Assembly (NCBI GenBank): GCA_965200545.1
Contig: CBDAUJ010000003.1
Location: 398,504 to 462,503, forward strand
Length of the DNA: 64,000 bases
Direction of reading: 5' to 3'
DNA from: Arenicellales bacterium
GTDB lineage: Bacteria > Pseudomonadota > Gammaproteobacteria > Arenicellales > JAJDZL01
Position numbers and translations under genes: made by a program. Shown here piece after piece: positions 6,982 to 64,000 of this stretch. Below the pieces are notes generated by a model that worked only from the letters and a program-made list of their open reading frames with translations, did no database searches and had not been told where the DNA came from. Positions within the stretch are counted from its first letter, which is position 1. Each line of letters opens with the position of its first letter.

Positions 6982-7035
6982 GAAGCATTCGACCTCAGCG
7001 TCGCGAATCGACAGAGCCTGCCAAACTCAGCAGCG

Positions 7036-8157
7036 CTACGCAGCAAGTTTTTCCCAGAATGATTTGATGCGACGGGTCCAGCTGGATACACCGGGCGTAT
7101 GCGTTTCGCCGCCGCACTTGACCAGCGTGTCGAATTCCGCCAAGAGTTCTTTTTGCCTGGAATCGAGATTGACGGGGGTTTCGACAATTAGCCGGCAGAA
7201 CAAGTCGCCGGGTTCGCCAGAACGGACGTTCTTGACACCTTTGCCGCGCAGTCGCATCATTTTGCCAGTTTGTGTCTCTGGGCGGATTTTCAAGTTCGCA
7301 CGGCCGTCAAGCGTCGGAATTTCTTCTGTACCGCCAAGTGCCGCAACTGCAAAACTGACTGGCACTTCGCAGTACAGATCGTCCCCGTCACGCGTGAATA
7401 TGGAATGCTTGCGGATTCGAATCTCAACGAAGAGATCGCCTGGCTCTACGCCTTGCGGACCTTCTTCCCCTTTGCCGGACAATCGAATCTGATTGCCATC
7501 GTCAATGCCGGCAGGAATCTGGACCGACAGCTTAGTGGTTTCCTGCACACGTCCCTGACCATTGCAGGCCATGCACGGATCGCGCACGACGCTGCCGGTG
7601 CCGCGACAGCTTGGACAGGTTTGCGACAACGTAAATCCGAGTTGCTGCATGCGCACCTGGCCACTGCCGCCGCACGAACTGCATCGGGTCGGGCGAGTAC
7701 CGGGTTTTGCACCACTCCCATCGCAGGTCTTGCAAACGACCATACGGGGGACATTGACCTGCCGCTCGACACCGTTGACAGCTTCCTCCAGATCCAGAGT
7801 CAGCGATATGCGCAGATTTGCGGCTTGAGCCTGACGGGCGCGGCGGCGCGAACCGAAGATATCACTGAAAATGCCATCAAAAATATCTTCAAATCCTGCT
7901 CCAGAATTGAATCCGCCGCCCGGCATGCCTTCAATGCCGTCATGACCAAATTGGTCATAGCGAGCGCGCATATTGGAATCAGACAGCACATCATACGCTT
8001 CTTTGGCTTCCTTGAAGCGCACCTCAGCCTGTGATGGATCGTCTTGATTGCGGTCCGGGTGGTGCTTCATAGCCAAACGACGATAAGCTTTTTTCAAATC
8101 AGCTTCAGTTGCGTTTTTGGACACTCCCAAAACTTCATAGTAATCGCGTTTGGCCAT
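7036..8157 (-). CDS. dnaJ: Molecular chaperone DnaJ
   Basis: J domain DYYEVLGVSKNATEADLKKAYRRLAMKHHPDRN. Four CxxCxGxG zinc-finger repeats (CKTCDGSG, CSSCGGSG, CPSCRGTG, CMACNGQG). Confidence 0.97.
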   Translation of the reverse strand: MAKRDYYEVLGVSKNATEADLKKAYRRLAMKHHPDRNQDDPSQAEVRFKEAKEAYDVLSDSNMRARYDQFGHDGIEGMPGGGFNSGAGFEDIFDGIFSDIFGSRRRARQAQAANLRISLTLDLEEAVNGVERQVNVPRMVVCKTCDGSGAKPGTRPTRCSSCGGSGQVRMQQLGFTLSQTCPSCRGTGSVVRDPCMACNGQGRVQETTKLSVQIPAGIDDGNQIRLSGKGEEGPQGVEPGDLFVEIRIRKHSIFTRDGDDLYCEVPVSFAVAALGGTEEIPTLDGRANLKIRPETQTGKMMRLRGKGVKNVRSGEPGDLFCRLIVETPVNLDSRQKELLAEFDTLVKCGGETHTPGVSSWTRRIKSFWEKLAA

Positions 8158-8224
8158 GTCTATCGAATCTCACATTGCTTGGTTTGCCGTTCGGCCTGCC
8201 CGGTTATTCGTTTCAAGCGAATCG

Positions 8225-10168
8225 CTACCGGCTCTTGTCATCTTTGACTTCTTCGAAATCGGCATCCACCACATCGTCGGCTTGTTGAGCGGTATCATCG
8301 GATGCACCCGACACATCGGTGTCCTGAGCCTGACTCTGATCTGCACTGGTGCTGTACGCTTTTTGAGAAAGCGCGTAGCCGGCAGTAGTCAGAGCTTCGG
8401 TCTTGGATTTTATCTCATCGACATCCGCATCGCGGCTGACTGCTTCTTCCAATTCAGAAATAGCAGACTCAACAGCGGACTTATCAGAATCATCGACCTT
8501 GTCGCCGAAGTCAGACAGCGTTTTGCGCGTGCTGTGAATCAAGCTTTCTGCCATGTTGACAGCATCGACCTTCTCACGCTGCTGGCGGTCCTCGTCGGCA
8601 TGCTCCTCCGCCTCGCGAATCATGCGTTCGATCTCGGCATCATCCAAACCTGAACTGGACTTGATTTCGATGCGATTTTCTTTTCCAGTCGCCTTGTCTT
8701 TGGCCGATACATGCATAATGCCGTTGGCATCAATATCGAAAGTCACCTCGATCTGGGGCATGCCGCGCGGCGCTGGCGGAATATCCGTCAGATCAAATCG
8801 GCCAAGCGATTTGTTGTGCACCGCCATCTCGCGCTCACCTTGCAGCACATGCACGGTCACAGCACTTTGATTGTCATCCGCAGTCGAGAAGACTTGCGTT
8901 TCTTTCGTCGGAATCGTCGTATTCTTGTCGATCAGCTTCGTCATTACACCGCCCAAGGTCTCAATGCCAAGCGACAGCGGTGTGACATCCAGCAGCAAAA
9001 CGTCCTTGACATCACCGCCAAGCACACCGCCTTGGATGGCAGCGCCGGCAGCGACAGCCTCGTCAGGATTGATGTCCTTGCGCGCCTCCTTGCCAAATAT
9101 CTTGGCGACCGTCTCTTGCACTTTCGGCATGCGTGTTTGTCCGCCGACCAAAATCACATGATCAATGTCGCCCGCCGAGAGTCCGGCATCCTTGAGTGCA
9201 ATTTTACACGGCTCCACCGTGCGTCCAATCAAATCGTCGACCAGCAATTCCATCTTAGCGCGCGACATTTTATACAGCAAGTGCTTCGGCCCCGACGCAT
9301 CTGCGGTCACATAAGGCAAATTGATCTCGGTCTGTGTTTTGCTTGACAGCTCAATTTTGGCTTTTTCAGCCGCTTCCTTGAGTCTCTGCATTGCCAGTGC
9401 ATCACCCCGAAGATCCATGCCTTGGTCCTTTTTGAACTCATCGGCGAGGTAGTCAATCACTCTGCGGTCAAAATCCTCGCCGCCGAGGAAGGTGTCCCCG
9501 TTTGTTGACAAGACCTCGAACTGGTGCTCCCCATCGATTTCAGCAATCTCAATAATCGAAATGTCGAACGTGCCGCCGCCCAGGTCGTAGACAGCGATTT
9601 TCTTGTCACCTTCCTGCTTGTCGAGACCGTAGGCCAGCGCCGCCGCGGTCGGCTCATTGATGATTCGTTTCACATCAAGCCCCGCGATCTTTCCGGCATC
9701 TTTGGTCGCCTGACGCTGCGAGTCATTAAAATAGGCCGGCACCGTGATGACTGCACCCGAAACAGGCGCCCCCAGATAATCCTCGGCAGTCTGCTTCATT
9801 TTCTGCAGAACCTTTGCAGAGATTTCGGGCGGCGACAAATCCTTGCCGCCTGCCTGCACCCAGGCATCGCCGTTTTTCGCCTTGATAATCTTGTAGGGCA
9901 TGATATCCATATCCCTTTGCACAACATCCTCATTGTGCTTGCGGCCGATCAGCCGCTTGAATGCAAACAGGGTATTATGCGGATTGGTGACGGCCTGGCG
10001 CTTGGCAGACTGTCCGACGAGCACCTCGCCATCATCGGTATACGCGACGATCGAGGGCGTGGTCCGATCACCTTCCTGATTTTCGATGATTTTGGCGCTG
10101 TCGCTGGATTCAAATACCGCGACACAGGAATTGGTTGTCCCCAAATCAATGCCGATAATTTTTGACAT
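8225..10168 (-). CDS. dnaK: Molecular chaperone DnaK (Hsp70)
   Basis: [14 protein letters not shown]-terminus and full-length Hsp70 architecture, 647 aa. Confidence 0.98.
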
Positions 10169-53208: not shown

Positions 53209-54551
53209 CTATTCCCTCGCAAATTGCATAACTTTCTCTTCAGACTTCGGATGGCATACTTTGTGAACTAAAGCTGCGTTTTTTAATGAAGTTTGTCCAC
53301 CCATACTATGCTCTACAATGTGATGAATTTCGGCATCCGACCAATTTAAACCGCCACCACAAACCGAACAGACTTTTCTCTGTTGGAAATACACCAGCTC
53401 TCGAATCTCATCGGGAAATTCTCTTTGCGTATCTTTTGGACATGTTGAAAGCATATTCGCAAGCATTTCGGCGACAAAAAAGTATGTCTTCGAGAAATAC
53501 TTTCGCTATTTGCGCTACTAACTCTAGTCCACGTTCCATATTCTAACCGATACTTATATATTGGACCAGAATCATCTACTTGAGATGCTGCCCTTAAGTT
53601 TAGATTGAACTTATCCAAAGCTAATGCAAATTCTTGTTGCCAAGTAGGGCTGAAGTCAACAAGCAAAGCTGCATGAATAACATGGTGCGCCTTCAATTTT
53701 GGGCGTTTATCGTCTCTTAACAGTTTGTGTAACAGATCAAATATGCCTCAAATTCTCTTCGCATCTTCTCCATTTGGATCAAAATCAAGGTTATCGTAAT
53801 ATAGATCGTCAATTGCACCCGCGTTAATGTCCGGGAAATCTCCGCCTGCTCTCTTTCGCTGAATCAGCAACAAAGAAGTCACTTGGGCTGCAAGTTGCCT
53901 AGTCTTACCTCGATCACTGCGCGGTTTTGCACCCATTACTTCTTTAAAAATTCATGGCCAGGATAGCCGATCATTTCAGGCTTTCCCCCAAGACGTAGTA
54001 TGAAATCGTTCATACCCCTGGCATAGCATCTCGACGCTCTTGTGCGTTTAATGCGCTACCTGCCTGCAGACGCACGAAAAGATCGAGAATTTTATTAACG
54101 TCATCTGATTGAATCATCACAACTAAGAGTGGTGTTCTCTTTAGCTGTTCTTGATAATCTGGCGGAAATTCGTGGAAGTATTTCCCTGCCCAAGGACATG
54201 ATTGTTTCACTAAAAATTGGGGAAATTTAGCTTCATTATTTTGTGTTTGTGGATCAAACAGCCGGAAGTCGCCTTCTACATACTTGTATATTGATGTCAA
54301 TCGCTGTTGTCCATCAATTATTTCGAGACCCTCTCGAGTTAAACCAGCGATCTCTTCTTTCTTCTCGTGAAGATATAACAAAGGAAGTGTGTAACCACGA
54401 AGTAACGAATCAATGAGCTTTTTTGTTGAGGCATTGTCCAAACAATGCCACGCTGATATTCCGGATTTGCAATCATCATTCCGGATTTGAACAAGTCTAT
54501 AAGTTCGGCAACTACTTTTGTTTTGCTTGTTTTGCGTTCAACTTTCATCAT
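53209..54551 (-). pseudogene. Frameshifted DUF262 (ParB-like nuclease) - HNH gene, GmrSD-like
   Basis: Five ORF fragments in alternating frames: NPEYQRGIVW (54339-54551), IIDGQQRLTSIY (54010-54441), middle pieces, and an HNH end CSVCGG...EIHHIVEHSMGG...HKVCH (53209-53466). Confidence 0.65.
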
Positions 54552-54568: not shown

Positions 54569-56097
54569 TATGTTTTAACCTGTTCTGCACAAATTATCGG
54601 GAGTGCGCGATATAGAATATGCGTATTTCCAACGTTTCACCACCACCAGAGGAGCAGGCATGAAAGATTATAGAGAGCGTGACAGCGGGGGTTTGGAATC
54701 GACGGGGCGGATGCTGGTCCATGCGGGGCTGGATGTTCACAAGGACACGGTGGCCGTGGCGGTGGCGTATCGGCCGCATCCGTCTCGGCCGCTGTCGGTT
54801 GAGGATCGCGGCACGGTGGCCAACCGGCCGGGGGCGCTGCTCAAGCTGATCGAGGGGCTGCGGCAGGAATTCGGCGAGTCGGTGCATGCGGCGTATGAGG
54901 CGGGCGCGTGCGGCTTTGTGATCTGGCGCCAGCTTCGGGACCTGGGCGTGAGCTGCGAGGTGGCGGCGCCTTCGCTGATTCCGAAAAAGCCCGGTGTCCG
55001 GGTCAAGACCGACCGGCGCGATGCGCGCGAGCTGGCGCGGCTGTCCGCGCTGGGCAGCCTGACGCCGGTGTGGGTGCCGGATGCCGAGCAGGAGGCCATG
55101 CGGGATCTGGTGCGCCTGCGCGCCGACCTCAAGGGCAGTATTCAAAAACAGCGCCAGCAGCTGAATCATTTTGTGCTGCGTCACGGTCATCAATGGTCCC
55201 GAACCAAGTGGACTCGGGCGCACCGCAGCTGGCTGCGAGACCGGAAGTTTTCCCATCCGGCGCAGCAGATTGCGCTGGCCAGCGCCCTGGACACTGTGGA
55301 GCAGCAGGAACAGCGCCTCAGCGAGCTGGAGCGCGACATTGGCGCCCAGTGCGAGCTGTGGACACTCCATCCGCTGGTCGAGTCGCTGCGCGCCCTGCGC
55401 GGGATCGACACGCTGACCGCTGTCACTGTGGCCGCTGAGATCGGCGACCTGCGCCGCTTCCGCAGCGCCGGACAGTTCATGGCGTATCTCGGCCTGACAC
55501 CCAGCGAGTTCAGCAGCGGCTCGCGCCGGCGCACCGGCGCCATCACCCGGACCGGCAATGGCGCAGTGCGCAGAATCCTCACCGAAAGCGCCTGGACTTA
55601 CCGCCATCCGCCACGCCGCACCAGACATCTCCAGCGCAAGGCGCAGCACGCTTCCGAATACGCTGTGAAACGCGCCTGGGTGGCCCAGAAAAGACTGTGC
55701 GGCCGATATCTGGCGCTGTGCCGCAAAGGCAAGAGCTCCAAAACCGTTGTCACCGCCATCGCCCGCGAGCTGGCCGGCTTCATCTGGGACATCGGCTGCC
55801 ACGAGCTGCGCCGGCTGCAGGTCGAGGCTGAGCGCTGACCGATCAATCGCAGCAGGTGCAGGTCTTATGGAAAAACCCTCGTTGTTTCTAGGTCGGCGCA
55901 TTGGCCATATGGCCAATGCGATCCACGAAATCAGACTGAGGCAGATCCGTGACGCAACAGAGTCATGTGGTAATCAACCCACGCATATCAGATTGTCAAC
56001 TCAGTGTCACCGCCAAGGCCGCACCTGCTGCTTTTCTTCATCAGAGTATTATTGTATATTGAACGAATCCGGGAAACGACAAACAGGTTAAAACATA
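54569..56097 (+). mobile_element. IS110-family (IS1111-like organisation) insertion sequence
   Basis: Perfect 16-bp inverted repeats TATGTTTTAACCTGTT (54569-54584) and AACAGGTTAAAACATA (56082-56097). Short 5' and long (~260 bp) 3' non-coding ends. GC-rich transposase gene in AT-rich surroundings. True ends may extend a few bp beyond the IRs. Confidence 0.8.
54660..55838 (+). CDS. IS110-family (DEDD) transposase
   Basis: GLDVHKDTVAVAV N-terminal motif. C-terminal GIDTLTAVTVAAEIGDLRRFRSAGQFMAYLGLTPSEFSSG. GGAG precedes ATG 54660. Confidence 0.9.
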   Translation: MKDYRERDSGGLESTGRMLVHAGLDVHKDTVAVAVAYRPHPSRPLSVEDRGTVANRPGALLKLIEGLRQEFGESVHAAYEAGACGFVIWRQLRDLGVSCEVAAPSLIPKKPGVRVKTDRRDARELARLSALGSLTPVWVPDAEQEAMRDLVRLRADLKGSIQKQRQQLNHFVLRHGHQWSRTKWTRAHRSWLRDRKFSHPAQQIALASALDTVEQQEQRLSELERDIGAQCELWTLHPLVESLRALRGIDTLTAVTVAAEIGDLRRFRSAGQFMAYLGLTPSEFSSGSRRRTGAITRTGNGAVRRILTESAWTYRHPPRRTRHLQRKAQHASEYAVKRAWVAQKRLCGRYLALCRKGKSSKTVVTAIARELAGFIWDIGCHELRRLQVEAER

Positions 56098-56104
56098 TCA
56101 GAAA
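55975..56104 (+). repeat. 130-bp IS 3'-tail, copy 1 (identical to 58075-58204)
   Basis: Base-for-base identity read directly from the sequence. Offset is exactly 2100 bp, direct orientation. Confidence 0.95.
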
Positions 56105-56384
56105 CTAATATTCCTAAAAATGATTACAAGATGAATGATTTAATAAAAAACTGGTAAATTTTTCTCCCACTGATTAATTAAATTGGGTGCCCATTGAATT
56201 CTATCACCATTATTTTTGACCACTTTCGATTCACCTGTAAGGGCAACGTTTTACCATCCAAATTTACACCTCGGATAGTTACCGCTACGAGCCTTCCAGA
56301 CGATACCATTACTAAAATCGATACCATTACTAAAATCACTTCACCCGAAACCGGTGATGCGAACAAAGGTTTGACTGCGTTGGT

Positions 56385-56609
56385 GGATCTGGACGGTAAG
56401 AATCCGCACCATTACCGACATTCAAATTCAGATTACGTTACTTGATTCGGCAGACGAGCCGATTTACCAAAGGATAGCGAGTAAATCTATGAAATTGCAA
56501 GAACTTGGAATGAGTTGTCGTAAAATTGCCGAATGCTTGGGAGCGGACGAAAAAACTGTTGCCAAAGCAATTCGATGGGCAAAGGGGTTCATCCTGTAGT
56601 TTCAAACAA
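56385..56609 (+). pseudogene. 5'-truncated copy of a small HTH gene (paralogue of 60547-60819)
   Basis: Gapless 60-residue alignment with the 60547 ORF (WW.W..IRT...LD.S..P.YQ.IA.KS..L..LG.S.R.IA..L..DEKTVAKAI). A stop lies 2 codons before the WW motif and there is no usable start until an internal ATG (56499). Confidence 0.5.
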
Positions 56610-56757: not shown

Positions 56758-57672
56758 CTACAACAATTTCAAGTCAAAACTCGTCGCCGCACGCTGAGGA
56801 ACAAATATGCCGGATTGATACGCAATCGTGAGAATGATTGTCGTGCAAAGTTTAAACGCATCTTCACTGAGGGCGCACAACTCAGAATCCTCGAGATTAC
56901 CGGCTGGAGCATTTCCCTTGGAATCCCGATGGAATAGTCGACTTCGTTTCTTATAAATCTTATCCCATTCTGGCAACAATTCAGACAAATTGTGATGATT
57001 CCAGAGGTGTTTGACCCTTCGACCGACAGACACTCGTGATCGTATTTCTTTTATTGCACTGATCACCATCTCTGCTCCTTCAATATCTTCGTGACCATTC
57101 TCTATAGATTCGACTATCCAATCTATTCGGTTTGTCTGTTCAGTTGTCCATTTTGGCTCCTTTGCGAGGCCTTCTACCGTTGATACCGATAATACTAACT
57201 TAGCAATAGAGTCACTACTAGCGTCTGCGAGATTCAGAACACGTATTGCCATCTGAATTGACTCAGAACCTGAGACGTTCTCGCTATTTTTGGAAAAGAT
57301 TTCTTGGAGCACTTGAGTAAAAATGTCGGCGTTTCGTCCTCCTTTGAGATTGGCACAGCCTTGAATTGGAGGAATAAAATCATTGTCATCCCGAAAGACC
57401 GTGATTCCGTGCACATCCGGTAATACATTGCACGATTCGCCATAAATTGCTGAGATAATTTCTGGATTGACATCCGATAATTTCTGATTATCTCCGTAAT
57501 TTCTGGCATCCAATCCCACACGACAACAAACTCCCGCCATATGTAATGCTTGACGTAATTTCTCTCCGAATATTCGACCTTCTTCCTCAGTCTTGAAACC
57601 ACTACTCTCAAAAATCAGCCAATCCACTTCCGACAGAGGTAACTGAGACTCTCCTTCCGATTTAATAGTCAA
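56758..57672 (-). CDS. Hypothetical 304-aa protein; helical C-terminal half carries an Rx4H (HEPN-like) motif
   Basis: Long intact ORF in AT-rich DNA with no family recognised by eye. RSRLFH at residues 243-248 (56929-56946), flanked by predicted helices. Confidence 0.6.
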   Translation of the reverse strand: MTIKSEGESQLPLSEVDWLIFESSGFKTEEEGRIFGEKLRQALHMAGVCCRVGLDARNYGDNQKLSDVNPEIISAIYGESCNVLPDVHGITVFRDDNDFIPPIQGCANLKGGRNADIFTQVLQEIFSKNSENVSGSESIQMAIRVLNLADASSDSIAKLVLSVSTVEGLAKEPKWTTEQTNRIDWIVESIENGHEDIEGAEMVISAIKEIRSRVSVGRRVKHLWNHHNLSELLPEWDKIYKKRSRLFHRDSKGNAPAGNLEDSELCALSEDAFKLCTTIILTIAYQSGIFVPQRAATSFDLKLL

Positions 57673-57757
57673 AGTTTGGCTTTCTCCAATCTTTACAATC
57701 AGCGATTCTTTTTCTTAATTTAATCGTGTTCCTACACTTGCTTTTAGGTGCACGCGA

Positions 57758-57946
57758 TTGAACATTTCCGATTATGCGCGCAAACGCGCCTGGGACGCAC
57801 AAAAGCGGCTGTGCCCGCACTATCTTAAATTCGTGCGAAGTGCGAAAAGCAACAAAACCGCAGTCGCCGCCATCGCCAGGGAACTCGCCGGCTTTGTCTG
57901 GGACATCGGCTGCCATGAATTCAACCGGCAGTCGGAAATCGCTTAA
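57758..57946 (+). pseudogene. C-terminal remnant of a second, diverged IS110-family transposase
   Basis: SDYARKRAWDAQKRLC...AIARELAGFVWDIGCHE aligns with the last ~60 aa of the 54660-55838 transposase. No N-terminal part and no left IR. Confidence 0.75.
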
Positions 57947-58074
57947 CGGCTGATGGTGAGATCGAATGGTAACCCTCGACGTTATCTATGCTGGCTCGAC
58001 AGCGCTTGGCGTTGTCTATAACCCGCGAATTTAGAGTGAGGAAGACCCATGACGCAACAGGGAACTGTGGTATC

Positions 58075-58204
58075 CAACCCACGCATATCAGATTGTCAAC
58101 TCAGTGTCACCGCCAAGGCCGCACCTGCTGCTTTTCTTCATCAGAGTATTATTGTATATTGAACGAATCCGGGAAACGACAAACAGGTTAAAACATATCA
58201 GAAA
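58075..58204 (+). repeat. 130-bp IS 3'-tail, copy 2 (identical to 55975-56104), includes the right IR at 58182-58197
   Basis: Identity read directly from the sequence. Upstream similarity decays into the diverged remnant. Confidence 0.95.
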
Positions 58205-58291: not shown

Positions 58292-60394
58292 TCACTCCGT
58301 CTCCCCGTTTCCCATCTGCTTTTCAAATGCCTGCCGTACCAAACCCATCATGTAGGGCAAGTCGTCTGGTTTACCGAGCTTTACCTCCACATCACCGTTT
58401 CCCCAGCGACCAACGCCAGAGACATCCTCGGCCAAACCCTTCGGATCGCGAAGTTCGTGAATCTGCATATTAAGTGACAGGCAAAGCCTGTTTTTCTGGG
58501 GCACAACATCCACAAAGTTAGTCTCTGCTTTGTAGGCGACATAAAGCTTCAGAAACTCCTCCGAAACGCATGGGCTGAGTGCCAGCGTTTCTTTTCGAAA
58601 TTTCTCGAACAATTCGTACATCGACGAACCAGATGTGAGGTTTGGGTGGTCGTTGACTGTATAACCCCCAGAAATTTCGCTGCTTGTGCGGTATTCCTCG
58701 AGCCGTTCCGTATCCAAATCAGGAGCTGCCCATACATCTGTGGCCTCTTTGGCGAGACGTTTAGCGCGGTTCTTGATAGCATCTTCATTCCACTTATCAA
58801 GGTGGCCCAGATCTTTGTTTAATTTAAGCGGACTCTCCCTAAACCCTCCTGTCATATCCCGCTTATCCAGAAAGGGTCGGTCACCGTATTCCGAGTTATA
58901 ACCAGTGAGCGTAAGATTACCGAGTGTGTGCAACCAAATCTTCTGAATGCGTTGCCACTCAGGACCGAGATCTTCACGCCACTCCTGTGACAGATTCTCG
59001 TTTTGAGGAAGAATGTGTTCTATGGTGTATTCACCAACGGGAACGCGTTCCTTGCGCTCATGGTTTTCGAGCCGACGCAACCAGTAATTGCTTCGAGAAA
59101 AATTGTATAGATCACGCTTGACAACCTCATGCTTGAACTCTTTGTCGCTCGGAAACCGACGGTAGGAGGGGAGTGTCAACAGATGGGCCTTGGCACTCTC
59201 GAGGTAAGTCTCTTTCCGAAGCGCACGTCCAAAAGTAGCGAATGTCTTGTTTAACGAATTTGTGGGAATCGCACACACAGCGCGGCGGAACACATACGCC
59301 TCAAGCAACCGTACCACAGCCTCGAATTTATCTTCATCCAGTATTTTGTTGGTAAAATCATCGTATAGTTCAAGCAATAGTGGATAAGCGACATCCACTT
59401 TCAGTTCTCTCAGGTCAGCAAATACCTCAGCAAGTTTCGCGTTAGTTTCTTTCCCCAGTGCCATAGCGCAGTAATAACCTGCAAATTTATGAATATCGGC
59501 AACCAGTGCATCCACTCCAGCATTGGCGACATCCGGTTTTCTCGCTTGGCTCTTGAAAGCTTCGTATACTGCCCGAATGTTCGGTATCTCCCCAGTCTTT
59601 AGGGTGAGGTAGTGCCGCATGAAACTGTCGAAATGTGAACCGTACGCTTCTTGACCAAACTCCACTTCCATCGGCCGCCAATGATCTCTGTATAACTGAA
59701 TCTGATGGGGCGGTTCCAACCCCATCAGAATGAAATTGCGAATCAAGTCGGCCTGACTCAGTTCTCGTCCAGTTGAATTCATGCTCTCAAAAATGAGCTG
59801 AGGGTTGTCTTGATCCCGGGTGAGAGCGATGTCGACAATAACAAGCTTCGCAAGGCCATTGCAAAGTGCAGAAAGGTTGGTTCCCAGGTCCTTCACACGC
59901 TGCTCAAAGAACGAGAAGTTTTCGGTGATGCGTAGTGATCGGTTTGCGGACGGCTCCAGCTGTCGAATCAGACTTAACAGACTTGCCCTGTCGGTCTGTG
60001 TGAGTAGCAATTTAAATCTTCTCTCCTCATCCTCCTCGGGGTTTAGCAAGTAGTAGTTGCGCAATTTCCGGGCCGTAAAGTCGGGAACGGGTTCGTTGTC
60101 CCCTAGTTCACGCGCCAAAGCTTCAAGAAGTAGTGTGACCGTAGTTAATCTCTGCTGACCATCAATGACAAGTAGTGGCGAGTGGCCGGTTACATGGAAC
60201 AAACTTTTCTCAATATAGACAATCGAACCGACAAAATGGACTGAGATGGTATCGTCAATACCGGTGCGAATGATGTCATCCCAAAGTTGGCGGCATTCAC
60301 GCTCAGTCCATGAGTACATGCGCTGATAGATTGGGATTTCGAACTGTGTCGACCGCCTTAGGAAACGCAAAAGGTTAGTTTCAGTTGCTCTCAT
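58292..60394 (-). CDS. DUF262-DUF1524 (GmrSD-like) nuclease family protein with extra C-terminal domain
   Basis: N-terminal FEIPIYQRMYSW and VIDGQQRLTT (DUF262/ParB-like). EYTIEHILPQN ... HTLGNLTLTGYNSEYGDRPF (DUF1524 His-Me finger). About 150-aa C-terminal extension. Confidence 0.85.
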   Translation of the reverse strand: MRATETNLLRFLRRSTQFEIPIYQRMYSWTERECRQLWDDIIRTGIDDTISVHFVGSIVYIEKSLFHVTGHSPLLVIDGQQRLTTVTLLLEALARELGDNEPVPDFTARKLRNYYLLNPEEDEERRFKLLLTQTDRASLLSLIRQLEPSANRSLRITENFSFFEQRVKDLGTNLSALCNGLAKLVIVDIALTRDQDNPQLIFESMNSTGRELSQADLIRNFILMGLEPPHQIQLYRDHWRPMEVEFGQEAYGSHFDSFMRHYLTLKTGEIPNIRAVYEAFKSQARKPDVANAGVDALVADIHKFAGYYCAMALGKETNAKLAEVFADLRELKVDVAYPLLLELYDDFTNKILDEDKFEAVVRLLEAYVFRRAVCAIPTNSLNKTFATFGRALRKETYLESAKAHLLTLPSYRRFPSDKEFKHEVVKRDLYNFSRSNYWLRRLENHERKERVPVGEYTIEHILPQNENLSQEWREDLGPEWQRIQKIWLHTLGNLTLTGYNSEYGDRPFLDKRDMTGGFRESPLKLNKDLGHLDKWNEDAIKNRAKRLAKEATDVWAAPDLDTERLEEYRTSSEISGGYTVNDHPNLTSGSSMYELFEKFRKETLALSPCVSEEFLKLYVAYKAETNFVDVVPQKNRLCLSLNMQIHELRDPKGLAEDVSGVGRWGNGDVEVKLGKPDDLPYMMGLVRQAFEKQMGNGETE

Positions 60395-60546: not shown

Positions 60547-60819
60547 TTGGCGATAACCGCACCACTAACCGACCTGGTAAGTGCGGACAATGGTGCGGAT
60601 TCTTACCTCTGGTGGACGTGGTCGCAATGTATTCGAACCATGTCCTCACTACATTTTACATGCGCTGTATTGGATACTTCGACTCGACCTCTCTATCAAC
60701 AAATCGCAGTCAAATCATTACAACTATTTCAACTTGGATTAAGTTATAGAACCATTGCCAAAAATCTGCACGTTGACGAAAAAACCGTTGCGAAAGCAAT
60801 AAATTGGATCAGCGATTGA
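60547..60819 (+). CDS. Small helix-turn-helix protein, divergent from the DUF262-DUF1524 gene
   Basis: C-terminal LGLSYRTIAKNLHVDEKTVAKAINW is resolvase/HTH_7-like. TTG start; protein-level paralogy with 56385-56609. Confidence 0.5.
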   Translation: MAITAPLTDLVSADNGADSYLWWTWSQCIRTMSSLHFTCAVLDTSTRPLYQQIAVKSLQLFQLGLSYRTIAKNLHVDEKTVAKAINWISD

Positions 60820-61618: not shown

Positions 61619-64000
61619 TCAGGATGAGTCAATATTTCTTACCGCAGTCATTTCAATCCCTGTTGTCGTAATTATTCTAACTGCAATCTGTTTGGTTTCT
61701 GGGATATTAAACGGTGTAGACTCCAATGACATAACAGCTTCCCATTCCTCCGTGTTTAATCCACGCACAATTGCAGATTTCAATCTTTTTATCTGTTTAT
61801 CTCCGTTTTTGAATGGAAAGTGAATACGCCTGGCAAAAAATGCCTTCCCGTTATAACTTGTATCAATCATCCACGTATCAATGGACTTCTCTGGTCCACG
61901 CCTAACGGACCCTGTTGCCGGATCATAGGTATCCCAACCTTTTTGTCTGACTTTAACTTGACCTGCTCCAATATATTGAATTTCGATATCAGGCTGGCCA
62001 ATAGCAACAATTGCCCTATCGTCTTTTTCAAACTTAAGAGGACCGATCATTAAGTCTCGATTGGCTTGAGCCTTGAGAACTGTCAATCTCCCCATTGAAT
62101 ATTTCTTTTCGTCCCGCGCATCTGCCTCAAATGCGAACGCTACGATAACCAACATACTGATAGATTCAATCGATACTACATTTTGTGCAGCCTTTCGTAT
62201 CAGCGCATCTGAACAAATTTGATCGTCTGCGAGAATCATAATTGCAACGTATTCGATAGAACCATCGGAGTGATTCACTCGAGCGGTATGAGTGACAAAT
62301 AACTCTGGCGAAGCCACTTCGATTGAATCAAACAATATTTTTGAATCTCCGACCTCAATACCAGAAACTGACAACGCATTTATCACTGCATTAATTGCCG
62401 TCCGACTCTCAGTTAGTTCATCTCTCGGACTAACTTTATGTGGTGATACATATCGATTGGGGGAGATGCTTTCAACGGTAAAAGGTCCAGCACATCGCTT
62501 CCTCCTTGGATCTGTTACAGGTCTGTCTACTAACAAAATCGGGGGGGGGGAACTTCGATAAGCCAGAATGCCAGCTGAAACTTTCGGTACTCGTTCGTAT
62601 ACAAATCCTTCAGACGGGTCCGTTGGGTCATGCTCAATTTGCACGGTATCTATAGATTGAGATTTGGATAATTCAGCATCTTTCGTTCTACCCTCCAACG
62701 AGTTTTTCAACAAAAACCAATCAAATGTCGCACTCAGCAGTCTTTGGCGTGTAAGTTGAATCGGAATAGCCGAAGTATCTGTCGTAATCCATCTTCGACC
62801 CCATTTTTCTGCAACATAGGCTGTCGTTCCAGAACCACAAGTAATGTCCATTACCAAATCACCAGGTTCTGTAGACATCAGAATGCAGCGTTCAACTACT
62901 TTTTCAGCGGTTTCTACAACATAATGGAGATCATTAGCTGCACTTGTATCATCCCAATAGTCATAAATCGATTTTCCAGGAATTTCGTCCGAATATAACT
63001 TCCATCGCAATTCACCACCAGATTCCGCTACCGCTAATCGATTTTGGTCTGCCAGTGATTGTAGACCACCGGGATTTTCTACCCGCCAAACATGACCGGG
63101 GGAAACTCTGTACTCAACACCTTTCCACACAAAAGGACTTTTCCGAAGCACATCACCACTTCCAGAACTTTGTGACATAAGTGGTTGTCGAGAAAATAGC
63201 CGAGCATCTTCGGCAATCATTTGAGGATTGGTCTTTTCCTCATTAGTCAAATTCCGTGTGCTCGTATCTGATTCTTCAATCATTGCATATGATGTCATAT
63301 AGTCGATAATCTCCTTAGTGTTTTCAAAACGTTGATAGATTTGAAAATACTTCAATTGAGATATGTCTTTCGCATACCAAAGTAAATAATCTCCAGAGCG
63401 CGGCAAGCGATTGGATTGAACGATCGTTTTTCTGAAACGAATCATACCAACTCTATTTTCATAGCCAAAAACTTCATCCAAAATTAATGCACATCGATTT
63501 ACATTTGCATCTCCAATTTGCATGAAAAATGATCCCGAGTCTCTCATTATGGCTCTTGCATGAACTGCTGTTTGATGGATGGTATCCAAATAAGAATGAA
63601 TGCCGTTTCTGTACGTATCTCTAAACGCTTTTACCGATTGAGGCTCTGCTGGCAATGATTCTTTCCTTTCAGTAACGGTTCGACTAGTGGTTGACGGTTG
63701 AAAATTCGACTTAAATCCAATTCCATATGGAGGATCATAGAAAAACATCTGTACACCACGGTCAGGTGAGTCATAACCTTCTTTTTTTGCTAATGAAGCC
63801 ATTACAGAAATCGAATCTCCCTTGATTACTCTGTTTGTCCAGTTGCCCTCATACTCGTACCATTTGTAAGTTGAATCTTCAGGCAACCCATTAAAATCAG
63901 AGAACAAGTTCAACTCTGGTTTTGCTTGCAATGAATCGATCCATGCTTGGGGGTGGATTTTCTCATGAATGTACAAAGGAAATGCGTCTGTTCTAACGTC
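61619..64000 (-). CDS. Beta-class N6/N4 DNA methyltransferase, Type III Mod-like, with large C-terminal domain (5' end probably outside the window)
   Basis: Motif IV FFYDPPYGIGF near the N-terminus. Motif I VMDITCGSGTT about 290 aa later (TRD-sized insert). Frame stays open to the window edge upstream of the TTG at 63976. Confidence 0.85.
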   Translation of the reverse strand, partial: DVRTDAFPLYIHEKIHPQAWIDSLQAKPELNLFSDFNGLPEDSTYKWYEYEGNWTNRVIKGDSISVMASLAKKEGYDSPDRGVQMFFYDPPYGIGFKSNFQPSTTSRTVTERKESLPAEPQSVKAFRDTYRNGIHSYLDTIHQTAVHARAIMRDSGSFFMQIGDANVNRCALILDEVFGYENRVGMIRFRKTIVQSNRLPRSGDYLLWYAKDISQLKYFQIYQRFENTKEIIDYMTSYAMIEESDTSTRNLTNEEKTNPQMIAEDARLFSRQPLMSQSSGSGDVLRKSPFVWKGVEYRVSPGHVWRVENPGGLQSLADQNRLAVAESGGELRWKLYSDEIPGKSIYDYWDDTSAANDLHYVVETAEKVVERCILMSTEPGDLVMDITCGSGTTAYVAEKWGRRWITTDTSAIPIQLTRQRLLSATFDWFLLKNSLEGRTKDAELSKSQSIDTVQIEHDPTDPSEGFVYERVPKVSAGILAYRSSPPPILLVDRPVTDPRRKRCAGPFTVESISPNRYVSPHKVSPRDELTESRTAINAVINALSVSGIEVGDSKILFDSIEVASPELFVTHTARVNHSDGSIEYVAIMILADDQICSDALIRKAAQNVVSIESISMLVIVAFAFEADARDEKKYSMGRLTVLKAQANRDLMIGPLKFEKDDRAIVAIGQPDIEIQYIGAGQVKVRQKGWDTYDPATGSVRRGPEKSIDTWMIDTSYNGKAFFARRIHFPFKNGDKQIKRLKSAIVRGLNTEEWEAVMSLESTPFNIPETKQIAVRIITTTGIEMTAVRNIDSS
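62541..62550 (-). repeat. Homopolymeric C10 tract (G10 on the plus strand) inside the methyltransferase ORF
   Basis: Read directly. Encodes SSPPPI in the current in-frame state. Confidence 0.95.

Follow-up and report, generated by a model that had tools for sequence, protein, structure and literature searches.

A nonsense-interrupted gene in an Arenicellales defence island belongs to an unannotated two-domain protein family with a putative, highly divergent HEPN-type RNase domain

In the 64,000-nucleotide stretch of contig CBDAUJ010000003.1 (positions 398,504 to 462,503) of an Arenicellales bacterium, hereafter the window, an initial annotation had singled out an open reading frame (ORF) of 304 amino acids (aa) as a long intact orphan and a possible HEPN-type abortive-infection effector. 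Our analysis revealed that this ORF represents only the downstream part of a gene of 336 codons, the 17th of which is a nonsense codon, and that the gene belongs to an unannotated family of two-domain proteins, about 335 aa in length, occurring in many bacterial phyla. As judged from its conserved residues and predicted structure, the C-terminal domain of the family is probably a highly divergent HEPN-type RNase. To the reading as a whole, namely that the window holds a decayed copy of an unannotated, divergent HEPN-like single-gene family, we assign a probability of roughly 0.55. The elements of the reading frame, in window numbering, are listed below.

56758-57672, minus strand: the 304-aa ORF with a TTG start, the 3' remainder of a longer gene
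56758-57765, minus strand: the full family-homologous frame of 336 codons (ATG, 15 sense codons, an in-frame TAA, 318 sense codons, TAG)
57717-57715, minus strand: the premature in-frame TAA, codon 17 of the full frame in the assembly sequence
57684-57687, minus strand: GGAG, 11 nt ahead of the TTG; judged from the sequence, it might serve as a Shine-Dalgarno site in re-initiation

The TTG at 57672 opens an uninterrupted run of 304 codons, and the coordinates and length given for the ORF were correct; its description as intact was not, since homology continues in frame past the TAA up to the ATG. Reading through from the ATG at 57765 gives MFNRVHLKASVGTRLN, then the TAA, then EKESLIVKIGESQT, followed from the TTG start by LTIKSE... 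When this read-through frame was compared with a family hidden Markov model (HMM) made without the window sequence, profile positions 10-322 were aligned with a score of 274.9 bits, while the 304-aa ORF alone covered only positions 38-322 (259.7 bits), a gain of 15 bits from aligning through the TAA; the piece upstream of the TTG matched the HMM even by itself (E = 3.9e-4). In good agreement with this, an independent genome profile search returned a 337-aa frame with "1 TAA", matching positions 9-321 of 323. The close homologues, 312-338 aa long, are without exception extended by about 34 residues at the N-terminus; the roughly 33-34 residues that the 304-aa ORF lacks correspond to strands 1-3 of these proteins. 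An N-terminus in another frame ("NTIKLRKRIAD") was also considered and was rejected, as the HMM alignment stays in frame across the TAA.

An exhaustive HMMER search placed 339 clusters (50% identity) in the family at E <= 1e-3, and 154 at E <= 1e-10. The members found by word-index searches were all named "hypothetical" and lacked precomputed Pfam domains, a single in-frame HU fusion being the exception. Even with the threshold relaxed to E <= 10, the window protein matched no model of Pfam, PADLOC or NCBIfam, bearing out the earlier statement that no family could be assigned. Likewise, a set of 116 diverse members showed no consistent match in Pfam or NCBIfam, none of the defence-system models of PADLOC-DB v2 was significant for the window protein or for these members, and no match to PHROGs was obtained with the four members searched.

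The hosts are metagenome-assembled genomes of Acidobacteriota, Alphaproteobacteria, Acidimicrobiales, Gemmatimonadota, Dehalococcoidia and Latescibacterota, mostly of uncultured soil, marine and sponge bacteria. Closer to the window, the family was found neither in 24 other species of the same genus nor in 16 genomes of the order, and among 401 genomes of the phylum the family profile matched only the window's own genome, the other 400 being without it. It was also not found by tblastn in plasmid and phage collections. Such scattered presence and absence is typical of an accessory gene that is transferred sporadically. The window copy is not the only decayed one: that of L019 is split over two frames, and those of L021 and L022 are partial.

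The domains and the putative catalytic residues were located in the window ORF as follows.

57268-57672, minus strand: N-terminal alpha/beta domain, truncated here (ORF residues 1-135), carrying D55, H88 and G89
56761-57267, minus strand: C-terminal all-helical domain, HEPN-like (ORF residues 136-304)
56929-56946, minus strand: Rx4H motif R243-S-R-L-F-H248 (ORF residues 243-248)
57172-57174, minus strand: E167, the near-invariant acidic residue (conserved in 115 of 116 members)

The RSRLFH motif, on which the HEPN idea had originally been built, indeed lies at the position given for it, and the alignment of the 116 members (window ORF numbering) revealed that it is conserved in the homologues, with R243 present in 114, S244 in 109 and H248 in 113 of them. 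The other strongly conserved polar positions are E167, Q179 (110) and Y240 (110), and H248 is directly followed by Gly in 102 members, so that the motif consensus can be written Y-x-x-R-S-x-[LIV]-[FVIL]-H-G. Conservation extends to W175 and W236 and, in the N-terminal domain, to D55, H88 and G89.

A weak relative of the motif region was seen outside the family. A protein of L105 (G195:C2:618683-618838, within an ORF of about 440 aa) matched the family profile with E = 8.6e-4 per genome, and is otherwise unrelated and devoid of Pfam domains. Its end, "...IEILLGD...FQKIYDVRSKIVHGG..." ("...YDVRSKIVHGG"), resembles the helix-2 Glu and the Y-x-x-R-S-x-x-x-H-G of the family, and the protein may represent a further, likewise unannotated relative of the C-terminal domain.

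The structure was predicted with AlphaFold2 (AF2) for the window protein (15 sequences, pLDDT 54.7) and for P0012, a full-length homologue with 41% identity (116 sequences, pLDDT 93.1, pTM 0.90). Consistent with the original description of a mixed alpha/beta N-terminal half and an all-helical C-terminal half, the N-terminal half of the P0012 model is composed of a four-strand beta-meander and a long helix followed by more strands and helices, and its C-terminal domain is composed of seven helices. The latter begins with a hairpin of helices 172-186 and 190-204, the second of which bears E202, and continues with three inserted helices (212-228, 233-243 and 250-260). RSRLFH, here residues 277-282, forms the very end of helix 264-282 and is followed by a 15-residue loop (283-297) and the last helix (298-322). 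No fold match to the N-terminal domain was found by Foldseek in the PDB or BFVD.

HEPN domains consist of two alpha-hairpins, frequently with helical inserts between helices 2 and 3, and carry the Rx4-6H motif where core helix 3 ends and the loop to helix 4 begins; the residue after the Arg is polar, usually N, D or H, and an acidic residue, often within Ex3[KR], is located in helix 2 (Anantharaman et al., 2013; PMC3710099). All these secondary-structure and motif features were present in the P0012 model, including the site of the motif, the helix-2 Glu and the location of the inserts, and the predicted order of helices along the chain (hairpin, inserts, hairpin) fits a HEPN bundle. Across the family, the Rx4-6H trait occurs with a spacing of four, and the polar residue after the Arg is Ser. 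The window copy also shows an Ex3K pattern (E-GLA-K), the Lys of which is not conserved in the family.

We then weighed these features against the alternative that the C-terminal domain is not HEPN but adopts another, possibly new helical fold, in which E...Y-x-x-R-S-x-x-x-H-G would serve other chemistry or ligand binding and the likeness to Rx4H would be convergent. Several observations weigh on the side of this alternative. The best Foldseek E values of the P0012 model were 0.16 in the PDB and 0.17 in BFVD, both for generic helical bundles; no PDB entry described as HEPN was among the top 50, the BFVD matches were mostly unnamed, and the low-confidence window model likewise retrieved no HEPN structure. 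No Pfam HEPN model matched the window protein or appeared among the 25 families most matched by the 116 members, and sequence and profile searches of the PDB were empty for both the whole family and a sub-clade. Moreover, the C-terminal domain has seven helices rather than four, Ser stands after the Arg in place of the usual N, D or H, and the PADLOC model RTasHEPN missed the family gene in 16 carrier genomes. The best viral structural neighbour was BFVD entry A0A3S6HCY2 (Foldseek probability 0.97, TMt 0.40, 190 columns of a 222-aa protein).

Against a non-HEPN fold stand the position of the motif, the acidic residue of helix 2, the polar residue after the Arg and the site of the inserts, all of which agree with the HEPN definition. 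Furthermore, HEPN families are almost undetectable by one another. In our own hhalign comparison, for which HEPN reference genes (DUF4145, Abi_C, HepT and Apea) were taken from genomes, the alignments of DUF4145, Abi_C and HepT missed each other (<= 15%) and control alignments with reversed sequences reached equally high scores; with its positive controls failing in this manner, the comparison had no power and was set aside.

The matches of the 116 members to PADLOC models also concentrate on HEPN, even though they are sub-threshold (E 0.002-0.03) and involve only about 10 of the 116. Every model matched by at least two members contains HEPN, namely Csx1/Csm6 (three members, best E 0.0017), RTasHEPN (three, 0.0034) and CARF1--CARF_HEPN (two); CARF2--CARF_HEPN and Csx1 were matched by single members. 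Three matches could be located, and all of them cover the motif. Residues 188-287 of P0106 (E193, motif 268-273) match positions 242-327 of the 357 of the Csx1/Csm6 profile, residues 287-338 of P0115 (motif 296-301) match positions 75-126 of the 148 of RTasHEPN, and residues 260-287 of the family consensus (motif 272-277) match CARF3--CARF, a model not labelled HEPN, so that two of the three are HEPN-containing models.

On balance, we regard a non-HEPN fold as rather unlikely and membership of the family in HEPN as likely. Membership is inferred from motif and topology and not from homology to a recognised HEPN family; among the readings available for the family, the HEPN idea is the best. Of the original proposal of a HEPN-type effector, the motif and the predicted layout have thus held up, while Foldseek, Pfam and PDB profiles supplied no HEPN relative.

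If the C-terminal domain is of the HEPN type, its putative active site would comprise R243, S244 and H248 at the end of core helix 3 together with E167 of helix 2, and the enzyme would be a metal-independent endoribonuclease, probably working as a dimer by analogy with other HEPN enzymes. The N-terminal alpha/beta domain could be a sensor or auto-inhibitory module that holds the RNase inactive until, in intact members, an infection or stress cue frees it; the freed RNase might then halt growth by abortive infection or a toxin-like action.

The state of the window copy was assessed in light of its surroundings, which contain the following elements.

57766-58204, plus strand: 5'-truncated IS110-family remnant, abutting the ATG of the gene in place of the native upstream region
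54603-56104, plus strand: intact IS110-family element, with its transposase at 54603-55838
58292-60394: intact GmrSD gene
53209-54551: second GmrSD/HNH gene, fragmented
61619-63976: N6/N4 methyltransferase

The gene is situated between the GmrSD genes and the N6/N4 methyltransferase in a low-GC island, whose G+C content is about 40-48% compared with about 53% in the rest of the window (ORF, 43%). GmrSD genes lie on both sides of it, in agreement with the GmrSD-like neighbours mentioned in the initial annotation. The homology of the insertion sequence (IS) remnant to the intact element sets in at 57766, a single base past the ATG, and therefore the native upstream region of the gene is gone, having been replaced by the truncated IS110-family remnant. 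The claim that two identical IS tails flank the ORF proved true of the terminal 130 nt (55975-56104 and 58075-58204), which are 100% identical, but not of the remaining IS sequence, which is only 70-80% alike (57766-58204 versus 55652-56104). Such an identical end beside a diverged transposase part suggests recent gene conversion or a strong constraint on the 3' non-coding end of the IS110-family element.

With its stop codon at codon 17, its lost upstream region, the second GmrSD gene in pieces and the IS remnants around it, the window copy is most likely a recent pseudogene, inactive in a decaying, IS-ridden defence island, as far as its sequence tells. Two points count against this assignment. 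Of the 31 most conserved positions the copy retains 28, every putative catalytic residue among them, and the GGAG 11 nt before the TTG would make a truncated re-initiation product possible. Together with the 304 open codons, they favour the view that the ORF itself is a functional single-gene HEPN effector translated from the TTG, for which the upstream stop would be irrelevant. We consider this improbable: homology runs in frame through the TAA to the ATG, every near-full-length homologue has the extra N-terminal strands, so that a product started at the TTG would be devoid of about three strands of the N-domain sheet, and an IS remnant occupies the native upstream region, in which no promoter-like site was found. 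Also speaking against it are the three conserved positions at which the copy deviates (P0012 numbering: A65G, L258W and G283R), the last being the residue immediately after the putative catalytic His.

A second way to rescue the gene, that the TAA arose through faulty sequencing or assembly and the genome has an unbroken gene for a 335-aa protein, finds some support in the good conservation of the rest of the frame and the draft state of the genome (eight contigs); it is very improbable, given that a stop made by a substitution is unusual as an assembly error, that the neighbourhood is visibly decaying and that the upstream region of the gene has been lost as well.

Two further remnants were noticed. 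A start-less helix-turn-helix (HTH) remnant at 56375-56599 on the plus strand (…ELGMSCRKIAECLGADEKTVAKAIRW…) is 50% identical over 66 aa to a small HTH ORF at 60547-60819 on the plus strand, which is divergent from the intact GmrSD gene; this pair fits two paralogous GmrSD-plus-HTH modules, the decayed one being split by the IS110-family element. Elsewhere in the same genome (G000:C2:95640-95923), the gene of a HepT-like (PF01934) HEPN toxin has decayed into frames of 107 and 57 aa.

The neighbourhoods of the family were compared at 20 loci. Clustering by blastp of every ORF within 5 kb identified no conserved neighbour, and the family gene is thus a stand-alone gene and not an obvious toxin-antitoxin partner, in line with the single-gene idea put forward at the outset. 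The suggested defence-island setting was likewise corroborated, as the family recurs in restriction-modification (R-M), defence and mobile contexts. In three loci the family gene has type I R-M genes next to it: it lies between hsdR and hsdS/hsdM in L026 and near hsdR in L023 and L017, the last of which also contains FRG and DUF2971 genes. MmeI-like, Dam or N6 methyltransferases or other R-M genes are found in L006, L007 and L011, and L024 contains DruA fragments. Most loci have integrases or transposases, and one family copy resides on a 37-kb circular contig with an integrase; L008, L010 and L015 contain housekeeping neighbours only. The toxin of a two-gene toxin-antitoxin pair, with a small, fast-evolving antitoxin gene that was missed, could be imagined from the ORFs of 74-129 aa just upstream in L023, L024 and L026, but we give this little credence because no neighbour is shared and the upstream genes vary across loci in size (74-318 aa) and orientation.

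In L026, the family gene (7001-8266) encodes the protein P0004, in which a domain of the HU/IHF type (PF00216) is fused in frame directly before the family N-terminus. The type I R-M locus in which it is embedded is interrupted by an IS21-type element.

The intact members might constitute an undescribed single-gene immune or abortive-infection module, combining an N-terminal sensor that has no structural match in the PDB or BFVD with a very divergent HEPN-like RNase, sometimes inside type I R-M loci as is PrrC, and spread by horizontal transfer over at least seven phyla; we put forward this combined proposal tentatively, at somewhat less than even odds. The family can reasonably be put forward as a candidate new single-gene defence RNase whose sensor domain is so far unrecognised. 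Further HEPN clades are being described regularly, and if this one is indeed a HEPN-type effector, a fairly large unannotated clade of about 340 clusters would be added to the single-gene defence RNases. Finding its trigger could be informative, because the putative sensor domain is without a fold match in the two structure collections searched. For the present genome, the gene is best annotated as a pseudogene broken by a nonsense codon, in a decaying defence island that IS110-family elements have shaped, and not as an intact orphan effector.

Compared with known systems, the family resembles the HEPN RNases in its Rx4H with a polar residue after the Arg, a motif that ends core helix 3, the helix-2 acid, the inserts between helices 2 and 3, and the defence and mobile settings (PMC3710099). 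It differs from the recognised HEPN families in giving no significant sequence, profile or Foldseek match to them, and in its Ser after the Arg, its large three-helix insert and the unrecognised fold of its N-terminal domain. To Csx1/Csm6 and the DRT-associated HEPN proteins of PADLOC it is linked by the two located, sub-threshold matches that cover the helix-2 Glu and/or RSxxxH; unlike in those systems, no CRISPR or reverse-transcriptase genes are nearby, and its N-terminal domain opens with a four-strand beta-meander in contrast to a Rossmann-like CARF domain.

The RnlA/LsoA toxins are anti-phage proteins of about 350 aa with N-terminal alpha/beta domains and a C-terminal HEPN domain, the antitoxin of RnlA being RnlB. 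The present family is of similar length and also joins an alpha/beta N-terminal region to a helical Rx4H C-terminal domain, but unlike RnlA it has no conserved partner, and RnlA structures were not among the Foldseek matches. PrrC and RloC are HEPN-type anticodon nucleases linked to type I R-M loci, with ABC-ATPase N-terminal domains. The family possesses no ABC-ATPase domain and no sequence similarity to them, and is linked to R-M genes in a minority of loci, yet it shares with PrrC/RloC the arrangement of a putative N-terminal regulatory part and a C-terminal Rx4H-type part on one polypeptide, with some members located in or beside type I R-M loci.
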